A stretch of 32,000 nucleotides of DNA, from positions 2,189 to 34,188 of the forward strand of contig CAJTMG010000021.1 of the NCBI GenBank assembly GCA_910577405.1, in the 5' to 3' direction. This stretch comes from an uncultured Oscillibacter sp. GTDB taxonomy: Bacteria; Bacillota; Clostridia; Oscillospirales; Oscillospiraceae. The notes beneath the pieces were generated by a model, which was not told where the DNA came from, searched no databases, and saw only the letters and a program-made list of their open reading frames with translations. The position numbers and the translations under genes are program-made. Below, in pieces: positions 2,837-27,335 of the stretch; positions within the stretch are counted from its first letter, which is position 1, and every line of letters begins with the position of its first letter.

Positions 2837-3409
2837 ATGATTTTTATGAACACGAAAAAATTTGACCCGTTGAGCTGGATTGTCACAGCCCTGGTAATTT
2901 TTCTGATTATTTGCACAGCTATTATTTCCATAAATCACAGCAAAACCACAAAAGAAGACACACGGTTTATAAGAAAAGGTAAAATCTGCACACTTGCGAC
3001 AATTGAGGAAGACAGCAAAACATTGGCAAGCGACACGGTAGAGGCTTCCACAGAACCGGACAATCCGTACAAAGAACTTAAACTGACACAAGACGAAAAA
3101 AAGCTGCTTGCCCGCATGGTTTACAGTGAAGCACCGTTTGAAGGACAAGTTGCAGTCGCACAGGTAGCACTGAACCGATACCTGCATGAATCATTTAACG
3201 GAAGCATTTCAGACATCATTTCCGAGCCAGGCCAATTCACCGTAGGAAAAAGATACGGGGACAGCCAGATGGCGGCAGTAGAGACAGCACTTTCAGGTGC
3301 GCCAGTTTTGGATCTGAACACAGATGTAGTATTTTTCTCCACCGGAGGGCTTAAATGCGGAACATATTACAGAACAATTGAAAATCACGTTTTTCGTACT
3401 TATTCTTGA
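2837..3409 (+). CDS. Membrane-anchored SleB-like cell-wall hydrolase (Hydrolase_2 domain)
   Basis: N-terminal TM helix (WIVTALVIFLIICTAIISI), then LLARMVYSEAPFEGQVAVAQVALNRY...EPGQF...VVFF, the pattern I recognise from SleB/CwlJ-type domains. The start is ATG 2837 or ATG 2846. Confidence 0.65.
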   Translation: MIFMNTKKFDPLSWIVTALVIFLIICTAIISINHSKTTKEDTRFIRKGKICTLATIEEDSKTLASDTVEASTEPDNPYKELKLTQDEKKLLARMVYSEAPFEGQVAVAQVALNRYLHESFNGSISDIISEPGQFTVGKRYGDSQMAAVETALSGAPVLDLNTDVVFFSTGGLKCGTYYRTIENHVFRTYS

Positions 3410-3521
3410 TGCAGTCCCCCACTTTTTTCAAGAGTTTTTAAGGGATGGTTAGCAAATCACGAAAAAGTTCCGCAAACAAAATAGAATAAAAATCTATCTG
3501 CAAGGAGGAAATTAAGTATCC

Positions 3522-4151
3522 ATGAAAATCATCAACGCCAGCTTTGAGATTATGACCCCTTTGAATGGAGCAGAAATTCTCAAGCACATTGAAACGGCAG
3601 GCCGCACCTGCTATAAGAGCGAGGACAAAATCACAGCCAGCAGCGCCGAAAAATTTGTAGCCAATATCATAAAGAATGGACATGAGAGTGTTTTGGAGCA
3701 TTTCAGTTTTTCAGTTCGCTTTATCGTGGACCGTGGAGTTTCACACGAACTCGTAAGACACAGGATTGCAAGTTTCAGCCAGGAGTCCACACGCTACTGC
3801 AATTATATCACGGACCGGTTCGGACGTGAACTCACAGTAATCAAGCCATGTTTTCTTGCTGAGGGTACTCCTGCATGGGACACATGGAAAACCGAATGCG
3901 CTTCTGCGGAGGCCGCCTATTTTGAGCTACTGGAACTTGGATGTCAGCCCCAGGAGGCCCGCGCTGTCCTTCCAAACAGCCTGAAAACCGAAGTGATCAT
4001 GACATGCAACCTTCGGGAATGGCGGCACATGCTCAGTCTGCGGACAGGCAAAGCAGCACATCCCCAGATGCGAGAGGTAACCACTCCCCTTTTGGAGAAG
4101 CTGAAGGAATTGATTCCGGTAGTCTTTGACGATATCAAGGTGACATCATGA
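3522..4151 (+). CDS. thyX: Flavin-dependent thymidylate synthase ThyX
   Basis: Exact ThyX signature RHRxxSxxxxSxR in LVRHRIASFSQESTRY. The size (209 aa) is typical. AAGGAGG lies upstream. Confidence 0.9.
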   Translation: MKIINASFEIMTPLNGAEILKHIETAGRTCYKSEDKITASSAEKFVANIIKNGHESVLEHFSFSVRFIVDRGVSHELVRHRIASFSQESTRYCNYITDRFGRELTVIKPCFLAEGTPAWDTWKTECASAEAAYFELLELGCQPQEARAVLPNSLKTEVIMTCNLREWRHMLSLRTGKAAHPQMREVTTPLLEKLKELIPVVFDDIKVTS

Positions 4152-4687
4152 AGATTATATGTATTTCAGGAAAAGCACAGCATGGGAAAGATACCACAGC
4201 AAAATTTCTTCAAGAGCAGTTGGAAAACAATGGCTACAGGGTAAAAATCACGCATTTTGCCGACCATCTGAAGCACATCTGCAAAGACTACTTTGGATGG
4301 GACGGTGTTAAGGACGAAAAAGGCCGCAACATTCTACAGCATATAGGGACAGAAGTCATACGCGAAAGGTCTCCGGACTATTTTGCTGATTACCTTGTGA
4401 ATTTCCTATCCATGTTTTATGACGAATGGGACTATGTGATTATACCGGACTGCCGTTTTTCAAACGAATTTGAAATCTTTACGGCATACGGAATGGACGC
4501 TATCCTCCTGCGGGTAGTGCGCCCTGGATTCCTTTCGCCATTGACACAGGAGCAGCAGGCGCACCCCTCCGAAACCGCTCTGGACAACTACGAGCACGAC
4601 TTTGTAATTGTAAATAGCGGAAGCAAGGCGGAACTTAAATCTTCCATCGGACATTTTACGGAAAATTTCATAAGGAGGGCAGCATGA
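4148..4687 (+). CDS. Phage deoxynucleoside monophosphate kinase-like P-loop protein
   Basis: N-terminal IICISGKAQHGKDT P-loop of the GKDT type seen in phage dNMP kinases. The start ATGA overlaps the thyX stop, with SD AAGGTGA. Confidence 0.6.
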   Translation: MKIICISGKAQHGKDTTAKFLQEQLENNGYRVKITHFADHLKHICKDYFGWDGVKDEKGRNILQHIGTEVIRERSPDYFADYLVNFLSMFYDEWDYVIIPDCRFSNEFEIFTAYGMDAILLRVVRPGFLSPLTQEQQAHPSETALDNYEHDFVIVNSGSKAELKSSIGHFTENFIRRAA

Positions 4688-5247
4688 GACCGCTCACAAT
4701 TTTATTTGACGCCGACGACACAGCTGAAGACCTCCAAAGCAGTTGGATAAGGCTTCTGAACCAGCGATACGGCACATCGGTCACACCTGACGACATCAAG
4801 GACTGGAATATGGCTCTTGCATTTCCCGGACTGACAAAAGACCAGATTTTCGGTGTACTCTCCGAAGAAGCCCTATGGAAAAACATTGACCCAATCCCCG
4901 GAAGTCAGCGTATCCTGCAAAAATGGTTTGACCAAGGTCATAATCTATATATGGTCACAGCCTCCGACTATCGTTCCTGCAAGGCAAAGACGGAACGGAT
5001 ATTAGAAATATTCCCGTTTCTGGATTGGGAACATATAATTTTGGCAAGCAACAAGCAGATGATATGCGGAGATATTCTGATTGACGACGGCGTACACAAT
5101 CTGATTGGCGGCAGTTATTTCAAGATTTTGTTCAGCAGGCCGCACAACAGAGGACTTTCAGTTAAACAATATGGAATCCATCGCGCAGAAACATGGGATG
5201 AAGCCGATGCCCTAGTAACCCGGTACACAAAGGAGATGCGTATATGA
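4684..5247 (+). CDS. HAD-family 5'(3')-deoxyribonucleotidase-like protein (YorS/NT5C-like)
   Basis: HAD motif I DxDxT in ILFDADDT and a later ILIDD motif; 187 aa. SD AAGGAGGG. The gene sits among nucleotide-metabolism genes. Confidence 0.6.
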   Translation: MRPLTILFDADDTAEDLQSSWIRLLNQRYGTSVTPDDIKDWNMALAFPGLTKDQIFGVLSEEALWKNIDPIPGSQRILQKWFDQGHNLYMVTASDYRSCKAKTERILEIFPFLDWEHIILASNKQMICGDILIDDGVHNLIGGSYFKILFSRPHNRGLSVKQYGIHRAETWDEADALVTRYTKEMRI

Positions 5248-7166
5248 TTGTAGTAAAAAGAGACGGAAGAGAAGTTGAATTTGACAGAAACAAGGTCAAG
5301 AACACTGTTATGAAGGCGGCTATAGAGGTTGACAAAAATATAACAATGGAAACAATCTGTCTTGCAGAAACGATTTCTAAAGAAATTACAGATTACGTTG
5401 GCAGGAAGCGCACTGTAGAAGATATTCAGGACGAAGTTGAAGAATATCTGATGGAAAGCAACCGAAAGGACATAGCGCGGGCATATATCATTTACAGAAA
5501 CGAGCGCACGAAGGTCCGGGAACGAAAAGCGGAGCTTGTACAGACGATTCTCAACCGTGCAAATTCTACAATAGATAACCGCTCCAACGCGAATGTAGAT
5601 GAAAAATCGTTTTCTGGACGAGAAAAGGAAGCGTCTTCCGATATTGGAAAGATGATTGCCCTGGACTTTGGAGGGCTTACCACAGACGTTGCAAATGCGC
5701 ATAAAGAGATGTTGATTTACCAGCACGACCTGGAAAAAGCGATTTACGGAATTCACAACTGTCTGAATTTGAACTTCCAAGAAATCTTCAACTATGGATT
5801 CCGGACCAGAAATGGAGATGTACGTCCGCCAACAAGTTTCTCCACTGCCTGCCAGCTTGCAGCGGTTGCATTCCAGTGTCAAAGCCAAGTGCAGTTTGGC
5901 GGAGTTGGAAGCATTCATCTTGACTATGACCTTGCGCCATTTGTAAAGAAGAGCTTCTACAAGCATTACGAGGACGGTTTACGCTACATTGCCCGCTTGA
6001 ATGAGGACGAAATCAAGACCCTGACGGATTTTGCAAAAAACAACGAGCTTTCCGTAGATGACGCAGCTCTCAAAACAGACGAATCCGTATATCAGTATGC
6101 AATGGATATGCTGGAAAAAGAAGGGCACCAAGCCGCGCAAGGCTTATACCACAATCTGAACACGCTGGAATCCCGTCAAGGCTCTCAGGTTCCGTTCACC
6201 AGCATCAATCTTGGACGCGACACCAGTCCAGAAGGCCGCTTGGTTACAAGATGGATTATGGAAGCAAGCATCGATGGTATCGGACACCACCATTTAACAA
6301 GTATTTTCCCGATTTCGATTTTCCAGTATAAGAAGGGCGTCAACGCGGACCCGAACAATAAGAACTACGACCTGAAGCAGCTTGCTCTGGAATCGATGAG
6401 CAAACGTATCTACCCCAATTGGTGCAACGGTGACTGGTCCCAGGCACATGAGGACGAGAACAATCCGGATACATACTTCTCCACGATGGGTTGCAGAACT
6501 CTGGTAGGATTTGACCGGAATGGCCTAGGCTATATCCGTCAGGGTCGAGGAAACAACGTCCCAAATACAATCATTCTCCCGAAACTTGGTATTGAATTTG
6601 GTATCTGTCTTGGAAAACGCACCAGCCCCGACCTGGACGGATTCTGGAAAGCATTTGAAGAAACTTTAAGACTTACAGAGACAGCATTGCTGGAACGCTT
6701 CTCTATTATGGTTCGTCAGTCGCCGAAATCTGCCCCATTTATGTACCAAAACAAGACTATTCAGGACGCAGAGGAATGTAAAGAGAATGTATTTAATGCG
6801 CTGAAGCACAACACGCTTGCCATTGGATATATTGGAATCGCGGAAATGTGCCAAGCGCTTTTTGGCGAAAACCATGCACACAACAAACGAGTACATCAAT
6901 TTGCTCTTTCGGTAGTACGCCGTATCAACGAGTTTGCAGCGGAAGCGTCGGAACGAAATGGACTGAACTTTTCATGCTATGCGTCTCCGGCGGAAAGCCT
7001 GTGTCGGACAGCGCTTATAGAACTGCGGAAACAGTACGGAGTAATTGAAAACGTCACATCCCACGAATACTTGACCAATTCCCACCATGTTCCGGTATGG
7101 GAGCAAGTATCCATTACAGAGAAATTGAACTGCGAAGCTCCATTCTGCAAATATCCGACTGGAGGT
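5244..7166 (+). CDS. nrdD: Anaerobic ribonucleoside-triphosphate reductase NrdD, exon 1
   Basis: ATP-cone N-terminus (VVKRDGREVEFDRNKVKNTVMKA) and a long class III RNR-like core. The ORF is cut by TAA at 7167..7169 before any glycyl-radical motif, and I read that TAA as the first intron bases. Confidence 0.85.
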
Positions 7167-8073
7167 TAACTCGGCTTCCAGTATAAAAAATCCCGTGAAC
7201 TATCAAATGATAGGTGTGCAATTCACATTATATTGTAGCCATAGGAAATGATGGTGAAGAATTGTGCTAACAGGGAACATCTAAACCCATAAGGGCATGA
7301 CAATCCTGTGGTAAGCTATTTGTTGCTAAATACTATAAGAGGTGGTGATTATATTCAAGAAATTTGGAAGGAAATAGAAGAGGCCCCCGCTTACCTTGTG
7401 TCAAATTTTGGAAAAGTGATGACAACACATGGGAACGGAAAGAAGATAATGAAGCAGGGAACAGACAAAGATGGATATAAAAAGATAGCTCTATCTATTG
7501 GGAATGGTAGATATATACACAGAAGAGTCCATAGGCTTGTGGCAACTGCATTTCTGGAGAACAAAAATGAGTTTCCAATTATAAATCATATTGATGGAGA
7601 TGTTACAAACAATAGAGTTGACAACTTAGAATGGTGTAACAATTCACGAAATCAATTGCACAGATACAGAGTGTTACATAAAACATGGGATGCAACAAGA
7701 CTGGGAAGACAGTATACATTCACACCGATAATAGCAAGAAATATTATATCAAAAAAAGAAATTGAATTTGATTGTGTAAACGAATGTGCAAGATACTTTT
7801 GTGTAAGTGATTCTGCAATATTCAACAGATTAAAAGGAAGAGTCAAAAATCCATCTAGCAGTCCAAAATCTCATATCAACAACTGGTATTTTGAAATCGC
7901 AACAAATAGAAACTCTAACGACCATCCGTCAGCAGAAATGCAATAGGAGTAGGGGCAGGGTGAAATTCCCTGCTGGGTGAAAACCCCTTAAATCGAAGCG
8001 CGGGACAAAAAGATATGGTCTATTCCCACTGTCAAATCAGTGTTAAAGTACCGTGAAAACGGGGGTAAAAAAG
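7167..8073 (+). mobile_element. Group I (IA2, T4 td-like) self-splicing intron carrying an HNH homing endonuclease gene
   Basis: P1: exon GGAGGU (7161..7166) pairs with intron GCUUCC (7174..7179), giving U.G at the splice site. The last intron base is G (8073). P4: CAGGG 7271..7275 with UCCUG 7304..7308. P7: GACCAU 7920..7925 with AUGGUC 8015..8020. R-like CUAACGACCAUCC and S-like AAGAUAUGGUCU elements are present. A nested hairpin sits at 7952..7987. Confidence 0.75.
7308..7946 (+). CDS. HNH homing endonuclease (NUMOD4-like N-terminus, HNH core, C-terminal HTH), intron-encoded
   Basis: WKEIEEAPAYLVSNFGKV (NUMOD4-like), NHIDGDVTNNRVDNLEWCNNSRNQLH (HNH) and CARYFCVSDSAIFNRLKG (NUMOD1/IENR-like). 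The GTG at 7308 lies inside the predicted P4 stem. The SD AGAGGTGG at 7338..7345 suggests a start nearer 7353, so the 5' end is uncertain. Confidence 0.85.
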   Translation: MVSYLLLNTIRGGDYIQEIWKEIEEAPAYLVSNFGKVMTTHGNGKKIMKQGTDKDGYKKIALSIGNGRYIHRRVHRLVATAFLENKNEFPIINHIDGDVTNNRVDNLEWCNNSRNQLHRYRVLHKTWDATRLGRQYTFTPIIARNIISKKEIEFDCVNECARYFCVSDSAIFNRLKGRVKNPSSSPKSHINNWYFEIATNRNSNDHPSAEMQ

Positions 8074-8391
8074 TGCATAACTTATATTGAGCTTGACAGC
8101 ACATTTGTCAAGAACACAAAAGCAGTTGAGGACATTATTGACTATGCGTTCAAAGAACTGGATATCCCATACCTTGCCTTTAACTTTCCTATTGACAGTT
8201 GCCTGGATTGCGGGTATCAGGGCGAGTTTAACAACAGTTGTCCGCAATGCGGGAGCAAGAACATTCAGCAGCTTCGCCGGGTAACAGGGTATCTGACGAC
8301 CGACTATCACAATTTCAACGATGGAAAACAGTCCGAGGTAGAGGAACGCGTAAAACACAGCACAAGCATGGAGACAAGGAATGAGTCATGA
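8074..8391 (+). CDS. nrdD: NrdD exon 2 (Zn ribbon plus glycyl-radical domain)
   Basis: CITYIELD..., the Zn ribbon CLDCGYQGEFNNSCPQCG and the glycyl-radical motif RRVTGYL. There is no plausible independent start. The sequence joins in frame to exon 1, giving ...KYPTGG|CITYIELD... Confidence 0.85.
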   Translation, partial: CITYIELDSTFVKNTKAVEDIIDYAFKELDIPYLAFNFPIDSCLDCGYQGEFNNSCPQCGSKNIQQLRRVTGYLTTDYHNFNDGKQSEVEERVKHSTSMETRNES

Positions 8392-22014: not shown

Positions 22015-23523
22015 ATGAGAATAGCCGCATATTGCCGTGTATCAACCGATGAAGAGAAACAGCTTGATAGCTTGGCGAACCAGAAAAATTTTTTTGAAGA
22101 GTATGCAGCAAAGAATGGTCACGTATTAGTACGTTTGTATGCTGATGAGGGCATTTCTGGGACCAGCTTGAAAAAGCGTGACGAGTTTATTAGACTTCTA
22201 TACGATGCCAAACTTGGATTATTTGACATGGTTGTTGTTAAAGACGTATCCAGGCTGGCAAGGAATACAGTAGACTTCCTGCAAAGCATCCGTACACTGA
22301 AAGGACTTGGAATAAATACACTGTTTCTCACTTCAAATATGGACAGCCTTGGTGAATCAGAATTCGTCCTTACGTTATTTGGTGCTATGGCGCAGGAAGA
22401 AAGCGCTAATCTTAGCAAGCGAGTAAAATTTGGCAAAGAAATCAGCGCAAAAAAAGGCAGGGTTCCGCAGAGAGTTTTCGGATATGATAGAATCGACAAC
22501 TTTACTCTCGTTATCAATGAAAAAGAAGCACAGATTGTTCGTGAAATTTACCGTATGTATATTGAAGAAGGGCTTGGATGTCGCAAAATCAGTATTAAAT
22601 TAAACGAATCTGGACATAAAACAAAATTTAATTGTGAATGGAACCCAAGAGGTGTTAGGCGTGTACTAGAAAATCCAATCTATAGTGGACACTATATCAA
22701 TCACAAATATGAAGTTGGAGACTACTTAGTAGGAAAGGTAGTACGTACTCCAGAGGACCAGCACTTTCACCATGATAGGCCAGAATGGGAGATCGTGTCT
22801 CCGGAAACATTTGCAAAAGCACAAAAACAGTTAGAAATGCGTCGAAAACAATATAATACCGGAGAACCATTTATGCAGGCACGATACAGTAGCAAGTACA
22901 TATTTAGCACTCTAATCAAATGTGAACATTGCGGTCGTTCCTTTTCAAGAAAAGTCCACAAATATGTTAATACTTATATATATTGGGTATGTCCAACAAA
23001 TTATCAATACACAGCAGAAAAATGTGATAATAAAACTAAATTAAGAGAGGACATCCTTCTTTCTAAAGTCAAAGAATATCTTGCATCATTGATTCAAGAC
23101 AAAAGCACTTTTGTAAATAAGATAATTGAAGAAATAGAGAAACAAAATCAAACAAAATGCATCAAACATGATGCCTCAGATATAAAAATGAAGCGTAAAC
23201 GTCTCATCGCAAAAAAAGAACGATACCAGGAAATGTACGCAAATGATGTAATGACCATGACCGAACTAAAAGAAAAGACAGCCGCAATTGCAGAAGAGCT
23301 AGAACGGCTTGACTGCTCAATGAAACAATATGCGCAAATGATTGCTTTTCAAAAGAATGGAGAAGATTACATAAGGCGTTATATACAAGATATCGAGCAA
23401 TTCCTAAATATGGAGACAGTAACGAACATAGATATGCGAAAAGTAATAAGTCGTATCACAGTAAACAAAGACAAAACCATAAAAATTGAACTGAAGAAAT
23501 TTGATATCGATGACATACTATAG
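22015..23523 (+). CDS. Large serine recombinase (phage integrase)
   Basis: MRIAAYCRVSTDEEKQLDSLANQ...VVVKDVSRLARN is the resolvase catalytic domain with the Ser in RVST. A recombinase/Zn-ribbon region (CEHCGRSF...WVCP) and a coiled-coil tail follow. SD AAAGGAG precedes ATG 22015. The hydrophobic extension from 21922 is not credible. Confidence 0.9.
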   Translation: MRIAAYCRVSTDEEKQLDSLANQKNFFEEYAAKNGHVLVRLYADEGISGTSLKKRDEFIRLLYDAKLGLFDMVVVKDVSRLARNTVDFLQSIRTLKGLGINTLFLTSNMDSLGESEFVLTLFGAMAQEESANLSKRVKFGKEISAKKGRVPQRVFGYDRIDNFTLVINEKEAQIVREIYRMYIEEGLGCRKISIKLNESGHKTKFNCEWNPRGVRRVLENPIYSGHYINHKYEVGDYLVGKVVRTPEDQHFHHDRPEWEIVSPETFAKAQKQLEMRRKQYNTGEPFMQARYSSKYIFSTLIKCEHCGRSFSRKVHKYVNTYIYWVCPTNYQYTAEKCDNKTKLREDILLSKVKEYLASLIQDKSTFVNKIIEEIEKQNQTKCIKHDASDIKMKRKRLIAKKERYQEMYANDVMTMTELKEKTAAIAEELERLDCSMKQYAQMIAFQKNGEDYIRRYIQDIEQFLNMETVTNIDMRKVISRITVNKDKTIKIELKKFDIDDIL

Positions 23524-23533
23524 AACCTACCTA

Positions 23534-23911
23534 TTTGATGTCAATGACATCCACCACGGCGACAGGCAGGTTGGAACGGCTCATGAGCTGCAAATCCGGC
23601 TCGCCAGTCCGCAGCTCGGAGGAGAAGATTTTCGCGTTTCCTTCACTGCCGAAGAGAATCGCCCGCTTGTCAAAGACGCACAGGCCCTCCACTGTTACCG
23701 GCGCGGGACAGCTCAGATACGCCTGAAGGGTCACAGAGTAGAAAAAGCGCATATCCACCGTGTAGAAGCCCCGATTGAAGCTCACAGGCTCCACGTCTAC
23801 ATACACGTACAGCAGCTTTGCACTGCCGCCCTTTACCGACAGCGCGCGGTTGATGACATCCACATACTGCATTTTCGGATAGAAACGCAGGTCTTCAATG
23901 CAGTCTTTATC
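23534..23911 (-). CDS. Middle segment of an interrupted host ORF (DKDCIEDLRFYP...VAVVDVIDIK)
   Basis: GC-rich coding sequence bounded on the right by the mini-element junction octamer (23904..23911) and on the left by the phage junction. A stop TAG occurs at 23531..23533, in AT-rich junction DNA. Confidence 0.65.
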
Positions 23912-24027
23912 GGAAGACACAGCGCCTTTGATACTTTTGGAAGCGACGGGCAATTCCGCAAAATCATATTGAAGAAAATACGCGGCCATGATATAATCAA
24001 ACCACTTTTTTGGAAAGGAGTGCGGCT

Positions 24028-24354
24028 ATGAAAGCATTTGATACGCGCTATAAACTTCTGGCGGATATGTATCAGGACGAATACTTTCCAGACTTTTTAG
24101 TGGACAAGGTAAAGGCGGAAATTCAGAAGGTAATCATTCTGCTGGAAAGCGGCGAAATTCAGACGGAAGTCATTCAGAAGAAGTTGGACGAGGCGGTTTG
24201 GGCCATCAATGATTTGCAGGCTGAATTCGACAAAAACGGCAGCGAAATTGAAACTGTCGCCCGGGACAGCATCGGAGAAACCGTCAAATATATTCTGGAG
24301 TGGTTCGGTATTCCCATTGATATCGAAGAGGCCGTCCGGGAGCGGGATTGGTAA
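24028..24354 (+). CDS. Hypothetical cytosolic protein (108 aa)
   Basis: SD AAAGGAG 7 nt upstream of ATG 24028. MYQDEYFPDFLVDK...ETVARDSIGE...WFGIPIDIEEAVRERDW looks like a conserved Firmicutes family (possibly DUF5713, from memory and unverified). Confidence 0.55.
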   Translation: MKAFDTRYKLLADMYQDEYFPDFLVDKVKAEIQKVIILLESGEIQTEVIQKKLDEAVWAINDLQAEFDKNGSEIETVARDSIGETVKYILEWFGIPIDIEEAVRERDW

Positions 24355-24475
24355 GTTTTCCAGCAGACAAGGCAGAAAAAAGGGGAATCTGAACGCCGTC
24401 AAAACACGCCTTTCTGTCATGCTTTGCCGGTAACTGTCTGGTCCTGTCTGATTGTTTATTTCCCGCGGAAGTCCG

Positions 24476-24754
24476 TCATATAATGCTTCCGTTTACCGAT
24501 ATAATTTCCTGTCCTGTAATGGCCTTTTCCGCAGTTTCTTGGGCGCGGCTGGCGACGGATTCCGAAGCAGGATTTTTCCGGGCTCTTGTGCAGTCGGCCG
24601 GACAAGAGCCCCAGCCGTCCGATATCGTTACGGACTCTACTTCCACCGGCTTTCCACGGATATAGATCACCTGCAAACCAGTGATTTTTGTGACCGTCAA
24701 AAGCGTCGCCTTTCCGTTCAGAATCTCCACATCCCTGTGAATGCTGATATCCAT
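24476..24754 (-). CDS. Hypothetical protein (92 aa)
   Basis: Minus-strand SD GGGAGGT 9 nt upstream of ATG 24754. Confidence 0.5.
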   Translation of the reverse strand: MDISIHRDVEILNGKATLLTVTKITGLQVIYIRGKPVEVESVTISDGWGSCPADCTRARKNPASESVASRAQETAEKAITGQEIISVNGSII

Positions 24755-24950
24755 TTCTTATCAACCTCCCAAGCCGTTCTATGCTCGCAGAGGCCGTCCT
24801 ATACGCGCTGCACCATGGAAATCTTGCGGCGCAGCGCCCAATAAAATCATTGCAACAGGCCGTCTATCAGCTTTACAAACAAATTCATCCACCGCAATTT
24901 GTAGGATTCCGCAATCTTTTGGAATTTCCTATATTTTCCTGATATACCTA

Positions 24951-24979
24951 TTGAAACCTTCCCTATCAAATGATAAAAT
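24951..24979 (+). promoter_or_regulatory. Candidate strong sigma-A type promoter with extended -10
   Basis: TTGAAA (24951..24956), a 17-nt spacer, then TGaTAAAAT (24971..24979). It points toward the AbrB-like gene and the recombinase. Confidence 0.4.
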
Positions 24980-25183
24980 GAAGAAGCAGGCAAGGTGTCC
25001 TCAGATATGGCGGTCTGTGTGCGTGTCAACCAATCAACCTGACCAGTATGCTCAAGCTGGATCAAGACTATGATTATTCGGCTTTCCAGCAGGGCGGTCT
25101 GGAAAATGGGTCCTGCGGCGGTTTTAATTTCTGTTGAAAATCGGGAAAAAGCATTCTTTATATGCAGAAGGAGGATTCAAAAT

Positions 25184-25366
25184 ATGCCTAATTCCCATGT
25201 GATTCAGTACCTTGACAACGAATGCAGCGTCCAGATTCCCGCAGAGTTTCTGGAGCAGCTCGGCATCCAGGCGGGCGAATGTGTGGAACTTACCTGTCGG
25301 GACGACGCAATCACCCTTGTAAAGGCCGGTTCTCCCGATTCCGGCGCCGGGGACGCGTCTCTTTGA
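25184..25366 (+). CDS. AbrB/SpoVT/MazE-type swapped-hairpin DNA-binding protein (60 aa)
   Basis: SD AAGGAGGA 8 nt upstream of ATG 25184. VQIPAEFLEQLGIQAGECVELTCRDDAITL is the SpoVT-AbrB pattern. Confidence 0.6.
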   Translation: MPNSHVIQYLDNECSVQIPAEFLEQLGIQAGECVELTCRDDAITLVKAGSPDSGAGDASL

Positions 25367-25698
25367 CCGTATCCGCAGCACGGGCAGGGAGGTGAGGCCA
25401 AAGACCGGCGGAACACTTTGCACGCGTCCATAAAAAATAACTATATTTTGTATATGCGACATATTGATAATACTAAAACAATGTGCTGTCATCTTCTTGA
25501 GGGAGGTGAAGCAAATGTTACAGACTATGCTCAGCATCCGAATGAACGACCAGCAGAAACGGGATTTTGACAGCATTTGCAGCGAACCGGGATCGTGTCC
25601 TGCAAGGAGCATTACGAATGAAGGCCAAAACAGATACAAAAGCAGCAACGCCCCCAGCCAAACGAGGTTGGGGGTATTCTTTTTGGAAGGAGGGCCGT

Positions 25699-27195
25699 AT
25701 GTCGGAAAAAGGGAATCTTACGGGACTGCGGGCGTACGCGTATCTGCGGAAATCCCGGATGGAGGAAGGCATGGACACGGAAACGGTGCTCCGGCGTCAT
25801 CGGGAGGCCCTGGAAGAATGCGCGGCGGAGCACGGTTTGTCAATACAGGCGTACTTTCCGGAGGTAGTCAGCGGTGAGAGCCTGTACGCCCGGCCCCAGA
25901 TGCTGCGGCTTCTGGAGGCGGTGGAAAAGGGGGAATGCGGCGCGGTGCTCTGCATGGATTTGGACCGGCTGTCGAGAGGCCGCATGAAGGACCAAGGCAT
26001 GATTCTGGACGCCTTCAAGGACAGCGGGACACTGATCGTGACGCCGGAAAAGATTTATGATTTGTCTGACGAGATCGACGACGAGCTTGCGGAATTCAAG
26101 ACCTTTATGTCCCGCCGGGAATATAAAATCATCAACAAGCGCTTACGGCGGGGACTCCAGCGGTCCATACGGGAGGGCTGTTATATTGCCAACGCGCCCT
26201 ACGGCTACCGCAAAACTGCTGTCGGCCGCCGTCCCACGCTGGAAATCTTCGAGCCGGAGGCAAAATTCGTCCGCGTCATGTTCCAGCTCTACGCCAGCGG
26301 TTACGGCTGCACATCCATTGCGGGACAGGTGAACGCCATGGGAGCGCGGCCACACCGGTCCTCCGCCTTTTCCCGGAACAGTGTGGCGAAGATTCTTCGG
26401 AACCCGGTCTACATCGGAAAAATCGTCTGGGATCAGAAAACCCACGTCAAAAAGAACGCCGGAGGCACGGTAAAGCGTCTCACAATCAGCAATCCGCCGG
26501 AGAAATGGACGGTTGCCGAAGGTCTGCATCCACCCATTATCGAGAAGGAGCTATTTGACCGCGTGCAGGAAATCATAGCGGGACGCTGCCGGCCTGGGAC
26601 GCATGATGGAAGCGTCAGGAATCCGCTGGCAGGGCTGGTACGGTGCGGTATCTGCGGCGGGCCTATGCAGCGGATGACCCTGAAAGGAGAAGCATACCTG
26701 CTGTGTCCCCGGAAGGGGTGCTGTGCGGCGGCAAAATTCACGCTGGCCGAGGGTCGGGTACTGCGGCATTTGGAGGACCTTCTGGCGGGGATGGAACCGG
26801 CGCTGTCTTCAGGCCGTCCGGATTTGCCGCTGCTGGAAACCGCCATATCGGATATCAGCGCCTCCCTGTCTGCCGCCCAACGTCAAAAGATCCGCCTGCA
26901 TGAGCTTCTGGAACTGGGCGAGTACGATTTGCCTACCTACCGGGCACGGATGGAGGCAGTAACGGAAAAGCTGTCGGAACTGGAACGGCAGCGCGAGGAA
27001 GCCCGTCTGCGTTTGGAGCAGGCCCTGCAAAGCCAATCAGAAAAGGTGCAAAGCGTGCTGGACGCCTACAGAACCAGCGATGCGGCACAGAAAAACGCCC
27101 TTCTGCATTCTGTTATTGAGCAGATCACATACTACAAGGAAAAGAAGAGCAGACCCGCCGATTTTCAGCTTGAGTTTATACTGAAACCCGGTTGA
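25699..27195 (+). CDS. Large serine recombinase (SpoIVCA/CisA-like) of the mini-element
   Basis: SD GGAAGGAGGG 4 nt upstream of ATG 25699. AYAYLRKSRMEE...LCMDLDRLSRG is the catalytic domain. A recombinase domain and Zn ribbon (CGICGGPM...LLCPRKGC) and a coiled-coil tail follow. Confidence 0.9.
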   Translation: MSEKGNLTGLRAYAYLRKSRMEEGMDTETVLRRHREALEECAAEHGLSIQAYFPEVVSGESLYARPQMLRLLEAVEKGECGAVLCMDLDRLSRGRMKDQGMILDAFKDSGTLIVTPEKIYDLSDEIDDELAEFKTFMSRREYKIINKRLRRGLQRSIREGCYIANAPYGYRKTAVGRRPTLEIFEPEAKFVRVMFQLYASGYGCTSIAGQVNAMGARPHRSSAFSRNSVAKILRNPVYIGKIVWDQKTHVKKNAGGTVKRLTISNPPEKWTVAEGLHPPIIEKELFDRVQEIIAGRCRPGTHDGSVRNPLAGLVRCGICGGPMQRMTLKGEAYLLCPRKGCCAAAKFTLAEGRVLRHLEDLLAGMEPALSSGRPDLPLLETAISDISASLSAAQRQKIRLHELLELGEYDLPTYRARMEAVTEKLSELERQREEARLRLEQALQSQSEKVQSVLDAYRTSDAAQKNALLHSVIEQITYYKEKKSRPADFQLEFILKPG

Positions 27196-27239
27196 CGCTC
27201 TGCTCTTCCAAAAAGTATTGACGCCGCTGCCTCTTTCTC

Positions 27240-27335
27240 TCGGCAGGAATCATAAATTTTCCTGGTATGGATGCAAACCGCCTCACGGATGCCGCTGAAA
27301 TCCGATACGGGACCGGGCATTACTTTCTCGGGCAT
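27240..27335 (-). CDS. N-terminal segment (32 codons) of the interrupted host ORF
   Basis: Minus-strand SD AGGAGGT 7 nt upstream of ATG 27335. It encodes MPEKVMPGPVSDFSGIREAVCIHTRKIYDSCR and then runs into element DNA. Confidence 0.6.

Follow-up and report, generated by a model that had tools for sequence, protein, structure and literature searches.

The window analysed here (the whole stretch of 32,000 nucleotides, from an uncultured Oscillibacter sp. of the Oscillospiraceae; GenBank assembly GCA_910577405.1, contig CAJTMG010000021.1, positions 2,189 to 34,188 of the forward strand) holds a 3328-bp mini-element that carries a large serine recombinase (LSR) and splits a conserved gene of about 275 codons, found in spore-forming gut bacteria, inside codon 33. 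We read this mini-element as a gene-intervening element, probably excised in sporulation to rebuild its host gene, and put the probability of this reading at about 0.7. The same host gene is interrupted a second time in the window, at codon 153, by a large prophage that runs off the left window edge.

Junctions, crossover and attachment arms

The split gene lies on the minus strand, and its fragments, the element and the element's attachment (att) sites occupy the following window positions:

23912–27239, no strand: mini-element, 3328 bp including one TC copy (junction arithmetic; a block of 99.2–99.5% identity in same-species contigs; junctions of related loci)
23910–23911, no strand: crossover TC at the C-terminal-side junction, GA in gene sense and the first two bases of codon 33 (common to all readable junctions; free attP)
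27238–27239, no strand: crossover TC at the N-terminal-side junction (related-locus junctions; free attP)
23912–23940, plus strand: element arm, an attP half-site, GGAAGACACAGCGCCTTTGATACTTTTGG (matches the family arm GGAAGATATAGCGyCTTwTA; inverted repeat I1)
27208–27237, minus strand: second element arm, GAAAGAGGCAGCGGCGTCAATACTTTTTGG (family junction comparison; inverted repeat with the first arm)
27240–27335, minus strand: host gene codons 1–32, MPEKVMPGPVSDFSGIREAVCIHTRKIYDSCR (joined open reading frame and homologue comparison)
23550–23911, minus strand: host gene middle fragment, codon 33 into codon 153 (tblastn; 99.5% alignment to a prophage-free same-species contig from 23550)

The octamers TCTTTATC (23904–23911) and TCTTTCTC (27232–27239) lie 3328 bp apart, and deleting one such unit in silico (23912–27239) brings codon 32 to codon 33 and fuses two minus-strand frames into an open reading frame (ORF) that reads MPEKVMPG...IYDSCR|DKDCIEDLRFYP..., or, across the junction, MPEKVMPG...DSCR|DKDCIEDL.... 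This joined product has 3858 protein relatives, and the full-length ones, of about 275 amino acids, cross the junction unbroken as ...DSCRDKDCIEDLRFYP... (P0012, P0019, P0061 and P0100 are examples). Because full-length relatives read through the junction, empty sites exist. Intact alleles are also present in loci L045–L049 and L059, and the in silico joined sequence equals the uninterrupted alleles, with an intact ORF reconstituted at codon 33. The arithmetic and the homologues confirm what an initial annotation of this DNA had proposed, namely an offset of 3328 bp whose deletion restores the frame, and the uninterrupted alleles found in relatives are the empty sites that it had suggested looking for. 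Two details of that annotation hold in part. Its GAT is indeed in frame with the ORF ending at 23534, but 23534 is not a natural gene end, the host sequence stopping at 23550; and the repaired junction that it wrote with a T/G ambiguity stands as a junction, with only the T variant, TGCCGAGATAAAGACTGC (Asp33), as the predicted form. After excision, the bacterial site (attB) is predicted to read ...TATGATTCCTGCCGA-GA-TAAAGACTGCATTGAAG..., and the circle's site (attP) CCAAAAAGTATTGACGCCGCTGCCTCTTTC-TC-GGAAGACACAGCGCCTTTGATACTTTTGG.

The octamer pair by itself is weak evidence, as TCTTTNTC occurs three times on the plus strand and five times on the minus strand of the window (eight copies in total). 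A merely coincidental pair, with the two ORF pieces being unrelated genes beside an ordinary recombinase island, would agree with this count and with the inverted repeats of similar strength that arise by chance in the region. This reading is refuted, and its probability negligible, because thousands of uninterrupted homologues match the joined product across the junction, which is more than a chance octamer match, and because the same break point lies beside homologous recombinases in about 40 species.

Comparison with related loci led us to reject the octamer as the recombination core and to replace it with a 2-bp GA. In gene sense, the N-terminal-side junction of the family reads TGC-CGN-GA-[GGAAGATATAGCGyCTTwTA...] and the C-terminal-side junction reads [...TAwAAGrCGCTATATCTTCC]-GA-TAAR-GAC; GA is the only shared core, because both junction types have GA alone in common across readable loci. 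The octamer had been taken for the only bases shared at the two junctions, with otherwise unrelated flanks, and neither statement survives: related loci share only GA/TC, and the termini at 23912–23940 and 27208–27237 are imperfect inverted repeats. The remaining TCTTT is, on this comparison, best read as a resemblance of attB and attP half-sites (AAAGA) beside the core, and the ends of the element as arms of about 29 bp that together make up a nearly symmetric attP. The layout found is that of LSR att sites, with a 2-bp crossover, imperfect inverted-repeat half-sites and an attL and attR that are hybrids of attB and attP, attB being intact in relatives and attP intact in L027 and L030; cleavage would fall at the GA/TC position. 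In the window, the two arms agree at 21 of 29 positions with one gap (manual alignment). Judged from the window alone, the terminal inverted repeat I1 is not stronger than chance pairs in the region, and its significance derives from the family comparison. Both window arms share CAGCG and ATACTTTTGG, a parallel divergence from the family which suggests continued selection for LSR binding.

Related loci, phage ancestry and selection

LSR relatives were searched in one genome per species, which yielded 44 loci in 44 species, all Oscillospiraceae (Flavonifractor, Oscillibacter, Intestinimonas, Lawsonibacter and Pseudoflavonifractor), with LSR identities of 50–72%. Culturable bacteria are among the carriers, namely Flavonifractor sp. 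An82, F. hominis and Lawsonibacter hominis (loci L018, L020 and L031). At 39 of the 44 loci, the 3′ end of the LSR gene is 30–60 bp away from a piece of this host gene, which is broken at the same codon at every readable junction. The initial annotation had held that homologous recombinases with unrelated flanks elsewhere would speak against it; those found here flank the same gene, cut at the same codon wherever the junction can be read. Of the other five loci, two (L027 and L030) are free attP sites and one (L003) lies at a contig edge; in L002 the arm is followed by TC and unidentified sequence, and L039 offers a weak match only, at a contig end.

The free sites and one further locus connect the mini-element with phages. 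The unintegrated attP reads ...TATAAGGCGCTATATCTTCC-TC-GGAAGATATTACGTCTTATAA in L027 (7440–7540) and ...AAAAGTGCTAAGTCTTCC-GA-GAAAGAATTAGCACTTTATAA in L030 (2250–2350), on contigs of about 40 kb where the ORFs beside attP look holin-, endolysin- and tail-fibre-like (translations judged by eye). In L070, a full prophage with the same LSR type, orf92 (a small conserved gene treated below), cI/cro-like regulators, DnaB, ParB and TerL is integrated at the same codon. Given phage forms at the same site and with free attP, the mini-element is therefore regarded as a reduced relative of active temperate phages. Within 23912–27239 there are no phage structural, lysis or replication genes, and the only PHROG hits are the integrase and weak AbrB-like matches; the ancestry is phage, but the present copy is not a prophage. 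L070 belongs to a close relative that has the same DnaE/DUF4364/DUF3048 flank; its prophage and split gene (3302–6706) are inverted relative to DUF3048, and the C-terminal fragment converges with DUF3048 at a distance of 45 bp.

The related elements occur in either orientation, with the LSR beside the N-terminal fragment in antisense or beside the C-terminal fragment in sense. The two orientations are intermixed on the LSR tree (L001–L044), and both core polarities, TC and GA, are present in free attP sites. As attP is nearly palindromic, turning the 2-bp core around would be enough to switch the polarity of insertion, and this may have happened repeatedly. The LSR gene is intact in 42 of the 44 loci; in L043 (6001–7154) it is broken into pieces of 237 and 143 amino acids, and this copy of about 5.1 kb is possibly immobilised. 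Three assemblies show a permuted order, with the C-terminal fragment upstream of the N-terminal fragment (L072, 3985–10261; L073; L014, 6001–11906), arranged as [arm-GA-C-fragment]-prfC-DUF4364-[N-fragment-GA-arm]-recombinase-orf92. Recombination of attL with attR at these permuted loci would set free about 4.4 kb of host DNA as a circle, with the rebuilt gene on it, and leave the LSR in the chromosome. A further observation concerns L036, an Oscillibacter metagenome-assembled genome with a 2.67-kb element, where an ORF like ribosomal protein L19 (rplS) lies between the att arm and orf92 (5064–5402).

Both the split gene and the LSR are under purifying selection. Ratios of nonsynonymous to synonymous substitution rates (dN/dS) between species that all carry the interruption are 0.03–0.29 for the split gene and 0.06–0.20 for the LSR, with similar dS for the two in most species pairs. 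From the 24 C-side junctions, 22 C-terminal fragments were extracted, each of them full length and free of stop codons, and the divergence of LSR and host gene is correlated (Mantel r = 0.73; 0 of 2000 permutations). Same-species contigs were found via the neighbouring DUF3048 protein (22 contigs, with 10 distinct places listed), and the mini-element is present in all 10 of the distinct places listed.

These results bear on whether the mini-element could be a dead remnant that does not excise, in a species where the host gene has been inactivated and the intact-looking parts have not decayed as yet. Such a remnant would fit several features of the window and its relatives: the att arms and orf92 of the window are among the most diverged of the family, a prophage adds a second break to the gene here, a relative (L043) has a broken LSR, and the assemblies contain no same-species empty site or excised circle. 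A scan of metagenome contigs for the exact junction gave one contig, which is 88% identical and so belongs to another species. If only terminal mother cells excise the element, a same-species empty site should indeed be missing, and a non-excising element would give the same result. The main argument against the remnant is that a gene whose pieces have all stayed intact has to be put together again at some point: across carrier species, split gene and LSR both have dN/dS values far under 1, the C-terminal fragments are all open, nearly all LSR genes are intact, and the arms have diverged in parallel, as if LSR binding were still selected. We therefore hold a dead remnant to be quite improbable.

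Recombinase, orf92 and excision in sporulation

Besides its arms, the mini-element contains the LSR, orf92 and lineage-specific cargo. These genes, the signals near them and the promoter-like motif of the host gene are as follows:

25699–27195, plus strand: LSR, 498 amino acids (Pfam Resolvase E=7e-19, Recombinase E=2e-25; PHROG 95 integrase E=6e-103)
24951–24979, plus strand: sigma-70-like promoter (TTGAAA, 17-nt spacer, TAAAAT, with TG) before the AbrB-like gene and LSR (consensus match only)
25650–25675, plus strand: terminator-like hairpin with T-run, 24 nt upstream of the LSR start (sequence scan)
24476–24754, minus strand: orf92, 92 amino acids, candidate recombination directionality factor (profile hits in related loci; strand opposite to the LSR)
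24776–24802, minus strand: sigmaE-type promoter-like motif upstream of orf92, ATAGGACGGCCTCTGCGAGCATAGAAC (strict regular expression; consensus from PMC3789822)
27390–27416, minus strand: sigmaK-type promoter-like motif of the host gene, CACCAACCCTCCGCCGCTGCATACACT (conserved pattern CAC-N16-CATA-N3-T/G)
24028–24354, plus strand: DUF5713 gene, lineage-specific cargo (Pfam PF18977 E=9e-38; sigma-70-like promoter at 23969–23997)
25184–25366, plus strand: AbrB/MazE-like protein of 60 amino acids, lineage-specific cargo or local regulator (PF04014 E=6e-5, just below cut-off; TIGR01439 weak)

The recombinase has the catalytic and the recombinase domain of its class. Its N-terminal catalytic domain matches PF00239 at E=6.9e-19 (68.8 bits against a cut-off of 23.3 bits), with the nucleophilic serine in a YLRKSR motif at residues 14–19 that is kept in relatives. 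PF07508 scores 89.2 bits, and Zn_ribbon_recom reaches 24.4 bits, just below its cut-off of 25.3 bits, with a CxxC...C..CC pattern visible in the sequence.

The only window cargo conserved with the LSR in related elements is orf92, and for this reason we propose it as the directionality factor; it is the best candidate for that role. A profile of orf92 finds it in 28 of the 44 related loci and in the window, always divergent from the LSR and 0.1–5.5 kb away. It is retained in the smallest elements (L036, of 2.67 kb, and L072, which has the LSR and orf92 only), and in the full prophage L070 it stands just after the cro-like gene, in an early operon. The orf92 family comprises 115 protein clusters, all with source names of ‘hypothetical’, and has no identity in Pfam or PHROG. 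The initial annotation had instead nominated the small ORFs at 25184 (AbrB-like) and 25515 as directionality factors; we rejected both, as neither has a homologue in any related element at the 44 loci, and orf92 fits better. The ORF at 25515–25700 begins like a ribbon-helix-helix protein of the RelB/DinJ type (MLSIRMNDQQKRDFDSICSE...), a pattern that is lost further on. The ORF shares sequence with the terminator-like hairpin at 25650–25675, is not called by gene predictions on identical same-species contigs, and is probably a gene remnant. A toxin–antitoxin module of MazE/AbrB type was also considered and rejected, the hit being below the family cut-off and no toxin family being present among the neighbouring ORFs. 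The DUF5713 gene likewise has no homologue in the 44 related loci, and Rfam finds no structured RNA in the non-coding stretch.

Upstream motifs provide a possible timing for orf92 and the host gene. In Clostridioides difficile, sigmaE and sigmaK promoters have a common CATA-type −10 element and differ at −35, with ATA for sigmaE and AC for sigmaK (PMC3789822). Homologues of orf92 are preceded by ATAGGACA-N11-15-CATAnnnn, an ATA...CATA motif that matches the published description of sigmaE promoters and may be one. The strict pattern has 17 matches in 1.06 Mb, all on the orf92 strand, of which 15 coincide with orf92 upstream regions and two (L017 and L040) are not matched to an orf92 start. The host gene, in turn, has CAC-N16-CATA-N3-T/G located 46–74 nt before its start in 18 of the 18 sequences whose start can be recognised (some 13 of them distinct), the pattern having 45 matches overall in 1.21 Mb. 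Its neighbours in other loci are the spoIIIA operon (L045–47), yunB (L072) and Amidase_3 (L051). The sigmaK-type motif and these neighbours are the grounds on which we regard the host gene as a likely sporulation gene, with a plausible late mother-cell role, perhaps in the spore envelope.

The following sequence of events would account for these observations. The 3328-bp block would be a reduced derivative of an Oscillospiraceae temperate phage family whose LSR integrates into GA, the first two bases of codon 33 of the conserved gene of about 275 codons; this remnant would have kept the two attP arms of about 29 bp, the LSR, orf92 and its lineage-specific cargo (DUF5713, AbrB-like). The LSR would be made at a low level from a housekeeping-type promoter, while in the sporulating mother cell a sigmaE-type promoter would drive orf92, which would serve as directionality factor and enable the LSR to carry out recombination between attL and attR. 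The element would then leave as a circle, the junction TGCCGA-GA-TAAAGAC would restore Arg32-Asp33, and the rebuilt gene would be read from its sigmaK-type promoter. The germ-line copy, in the forespore, would stay interrupted and the element would thereby be inherited. In this genome, a second and independent LSR prophage would also have to leave codon 153 before a full-length protein could be made. The evidence supports the initial annotation in its broader claims of an LSR element whose precise excision restores the frame, and of a reduced element retained for excision.

Several observations weigh against developmental excision. Next to the absent same-species empty site already mentioned, the diverged att arms and an atypical C-terminus of the window orf92 could mean that this copy is weakened, and the terminator-like hairpin directly precedes the LSR start (terminator-like sites in the region do not exceed the shuffle expectation in number). 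In some pairs, for example the window lineage against L006 and L008, the LSR is far more diverged than the host gene; such exceptions imply replacement, and inheritance would not have been purely vertical. The sigma-factor assignments rest on resemblance to consensus sequences. The structure model of orf92 is of moderate confidence (pLDDT 72.9) and has no fold match in the Protein Data Bank (PDB), which is uninformative since directionality factors are structurally diverse (PMC12286644). A sporulation role of the host protein finds no help from homology, as its family, 1258 clusters at 50% identity with an uninterrupted length of about 275 codons, has no match in Pfam, NCBIfam or PHROGs even at permissive E-values and carries source names that are all ‘hypothetical’. 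A PDB sequence search with the host protein gave only noise, and its AlphaFold2 model, which is confident (pLDDT 81.6) and beta-rich with a Cys-rich tail, has no PDB fold match (TM <0.2, no hit at E<=0.001).

The motif-based nature of the sigma assignments leaves room for an LSR element that does excise, with excision unlinked to sporulation and brought about by stress or phage-type induction, or as a phase-variation-like switch in growing cells. The relatives include inducible-looking prophages with cI/cro-like and LexA-like repressors, and the early-operon position of orf92 in L070 would suit such induction. The mini-element, however, has no repressor and no lytic genes, yet it has kept orf92 with a CATA-type promoter of its own. 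Excision in dividing cells would moreover lose the non-replicating circle, whereas the element is present in every same-species contig read, and the host gene has its conserved sigmaK-type motif. We consider excision outside sporulation unlikely on balance and prefer excision in the mother cell.

Known systems and the second interruption

If excised in sporulation, the mini-element would belong with skin, SPbeta/spsM, gin and yin, with a new target gene and a new host family; it stands out by being small, by its broad family and by the double interruption of its host gene. The searchable literature yielded neither a description of this target gene nor one of such elements in Oscillospiraceae. 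An analogous layout is that of skinCd in the sigK gene of C. difficile, where the LSR CD1231 is not sporulation-specific and the directionality factor CD1234 is under sigmaE/SpoIIID control, which limits excision to the mother cell (PMC5025042). As there, an LSR element sits in a presumed mother-cell gene, and, by motifs, a sigma-70-like promoter precedes the LSR operon and a sigmaE-type motif precedes orf92. The target differs, being an uncharacterised protein of 275 amino acids in Oscillospiraceae and not sigK, the element is only 3.3 kb without phage-like genes, and its excision is predicted. By its clusters, orf92 forms a family of its own.

The gin element in gerE of Bacillus cereus ATCC 10987 is a non-prophage element for which the LSR GirC and the small GirX are necessary and sufficient, and in its att sites an imperfect inverted repeat encloses a short common core, a dinucleotide being the predicted point of cleavage (PMC5595907). 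The mini-element resembles it as a non-prophage gene-intervening element with an LSR, a small factor (here the candidate orf92) and inverted-repeat att sites. It differs in size and content (3.3 kb with one recombinase gene, against 28.6 kb with three), in a shared core of only 2 bp across the family, and in a phage ancestry that its relatives still show directly. XisF of the cyanobacterial fdxN element is likewise an LSR of a developmentally excised element in a terminally differentiating cell, and the NCBIfam XisF model matches the mini-element LSR at E=1e-27; its score of 96.8 falls far short of the 375-bit cut-off, which means that the LSR is no XisF equivalog, and the two systems differ in phylum and developmental programme. 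The closest deposited phage LSRs are the integrases of Thermoanaerobacterium phage THSA-485A, Clostridium perfringens PhiS63 and C. tetani phiCT, with 36–41% identity over 96–98% of the length; this identity is low, their att sites and targets are others, and they belong to full phages. PhiS63 and the C. tetani phages are sigK-intervening prophages.

The second interruption is made up of the following features:

1–23549, plus strand: right end of a large prophage that cuts codon 153 and runs off the left window edge (GC about 40% against about 57%; PHROG hits; absent from other same-species contigs listed)
22015–23523, plus strand: prophage LSR, 502 amino acids (27% identical to the mini-element LSR; a 62%-identical homologue at the same host codon in L004)

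Host sequence ends inside codon 153, with the junction at 23549/23550. As a result, the product encoded in the window stops at residue 158 (...AVVDVIDIK*), whereas intact relatives go on with AVVEAVDPIVLD... for about 120 more residues, and the last third of the host gene, the C-terminal part, lies outside the window. Prophage-free same-species contigs align to the window from 23550 at 99.2–99.5% identity and carry the remaining gene as an ORF of 259 amino acids ending ...CCCCT*. The prophage is polymorphic, being present only in contigs of the L050/L062 type among the same-species contigs listed. Because it interrupts codon 153, excision of the mini-element alone leaves the gene unrestored here. 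PHROG hits in the prophage comprise a DNA polymerase (polymerase III alpha) and a radical-SAM enzyme, and further ORFs look ThyX-, NrdD/NrdG- and dUTPase-like by eye from their translations.

The region around codon 153 is a recurrent target. The gene is also cut there in L004, which has the 62%-identical recombinase, and in L022, and residues 153–158 are where many metagenomic homologues stop. Other homologues (P0001/L058, P0113–P0118, P0027 and L056) are truncated at about residues 153–168 with differing foreign tails. These truncations suggest that several distinct elements use the region of residues 153–168 or so as an insertion hot spot.

The best analogue of this second interruption (1–23549) is SPbeta of Bacillus subtilis (SprA/SprB), whose target is spsM. 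This large, active prophage has a terminal LSR, splits a late mother-cell gene and is excised in sporulation (PMC4191935, PMC5499854). Both are large phages with an LSR at the end, the one in the window carrying a polymerase III alpha. The gene and att sites are different, and spsM does not hold two independent LSR elements in one gene.

Taken together, these features would be of interest in several ways. A widespread uncharacterised protein family is flagged as a likely late mother-cell product in gut Oscillospiraceae. Reduced to an LSR, a single small ORF and a pair of arms each about 29 bp long, the mini-versions of 2.7–3.3 kb could be a small natural test case for directionality factors and a source of compact, candidate orthogonal LSR/att/directionality-factor parts, as attB, attP, attL and attR can all be read from public data. 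Full phages, intermediates and mini-elements at one codon show the decay of a phage into a host module in progress, and since the gene holds two independent elements, one may ask how their excisions would be coordinated. To our knowledge, sporulation in hard-to-culture gut Oscillospiraceae has seen little experimental study. A broader picture, which we offer tentatively and think somewhat doubtful, would combine these parts, with LSR–orf92 as a developmental module kept by the host that goes further than classical skin: a near-perfectly palindromic attP with a repeatedly flipped core, so that one codon is used in both orientations; one gene as landing pad of at least two unrelated LSR systems, at codons 33 and 153, its protein needing two programmed excisions; and the circles of the permuted loci L014, L072 and L073.

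The anaerobic ribonucleotide reductase of the prophage itself looks split (window 5244–8391), with an NrdD-like ORF at 5244–7169, a glycyl-radical C-terminal piece at 8053–8391 and an HNH-type endonuclease ORF between the two (7308–7946), an arrangement that, judging by the translations, looks like an intron or homing-endonuclease insertion.

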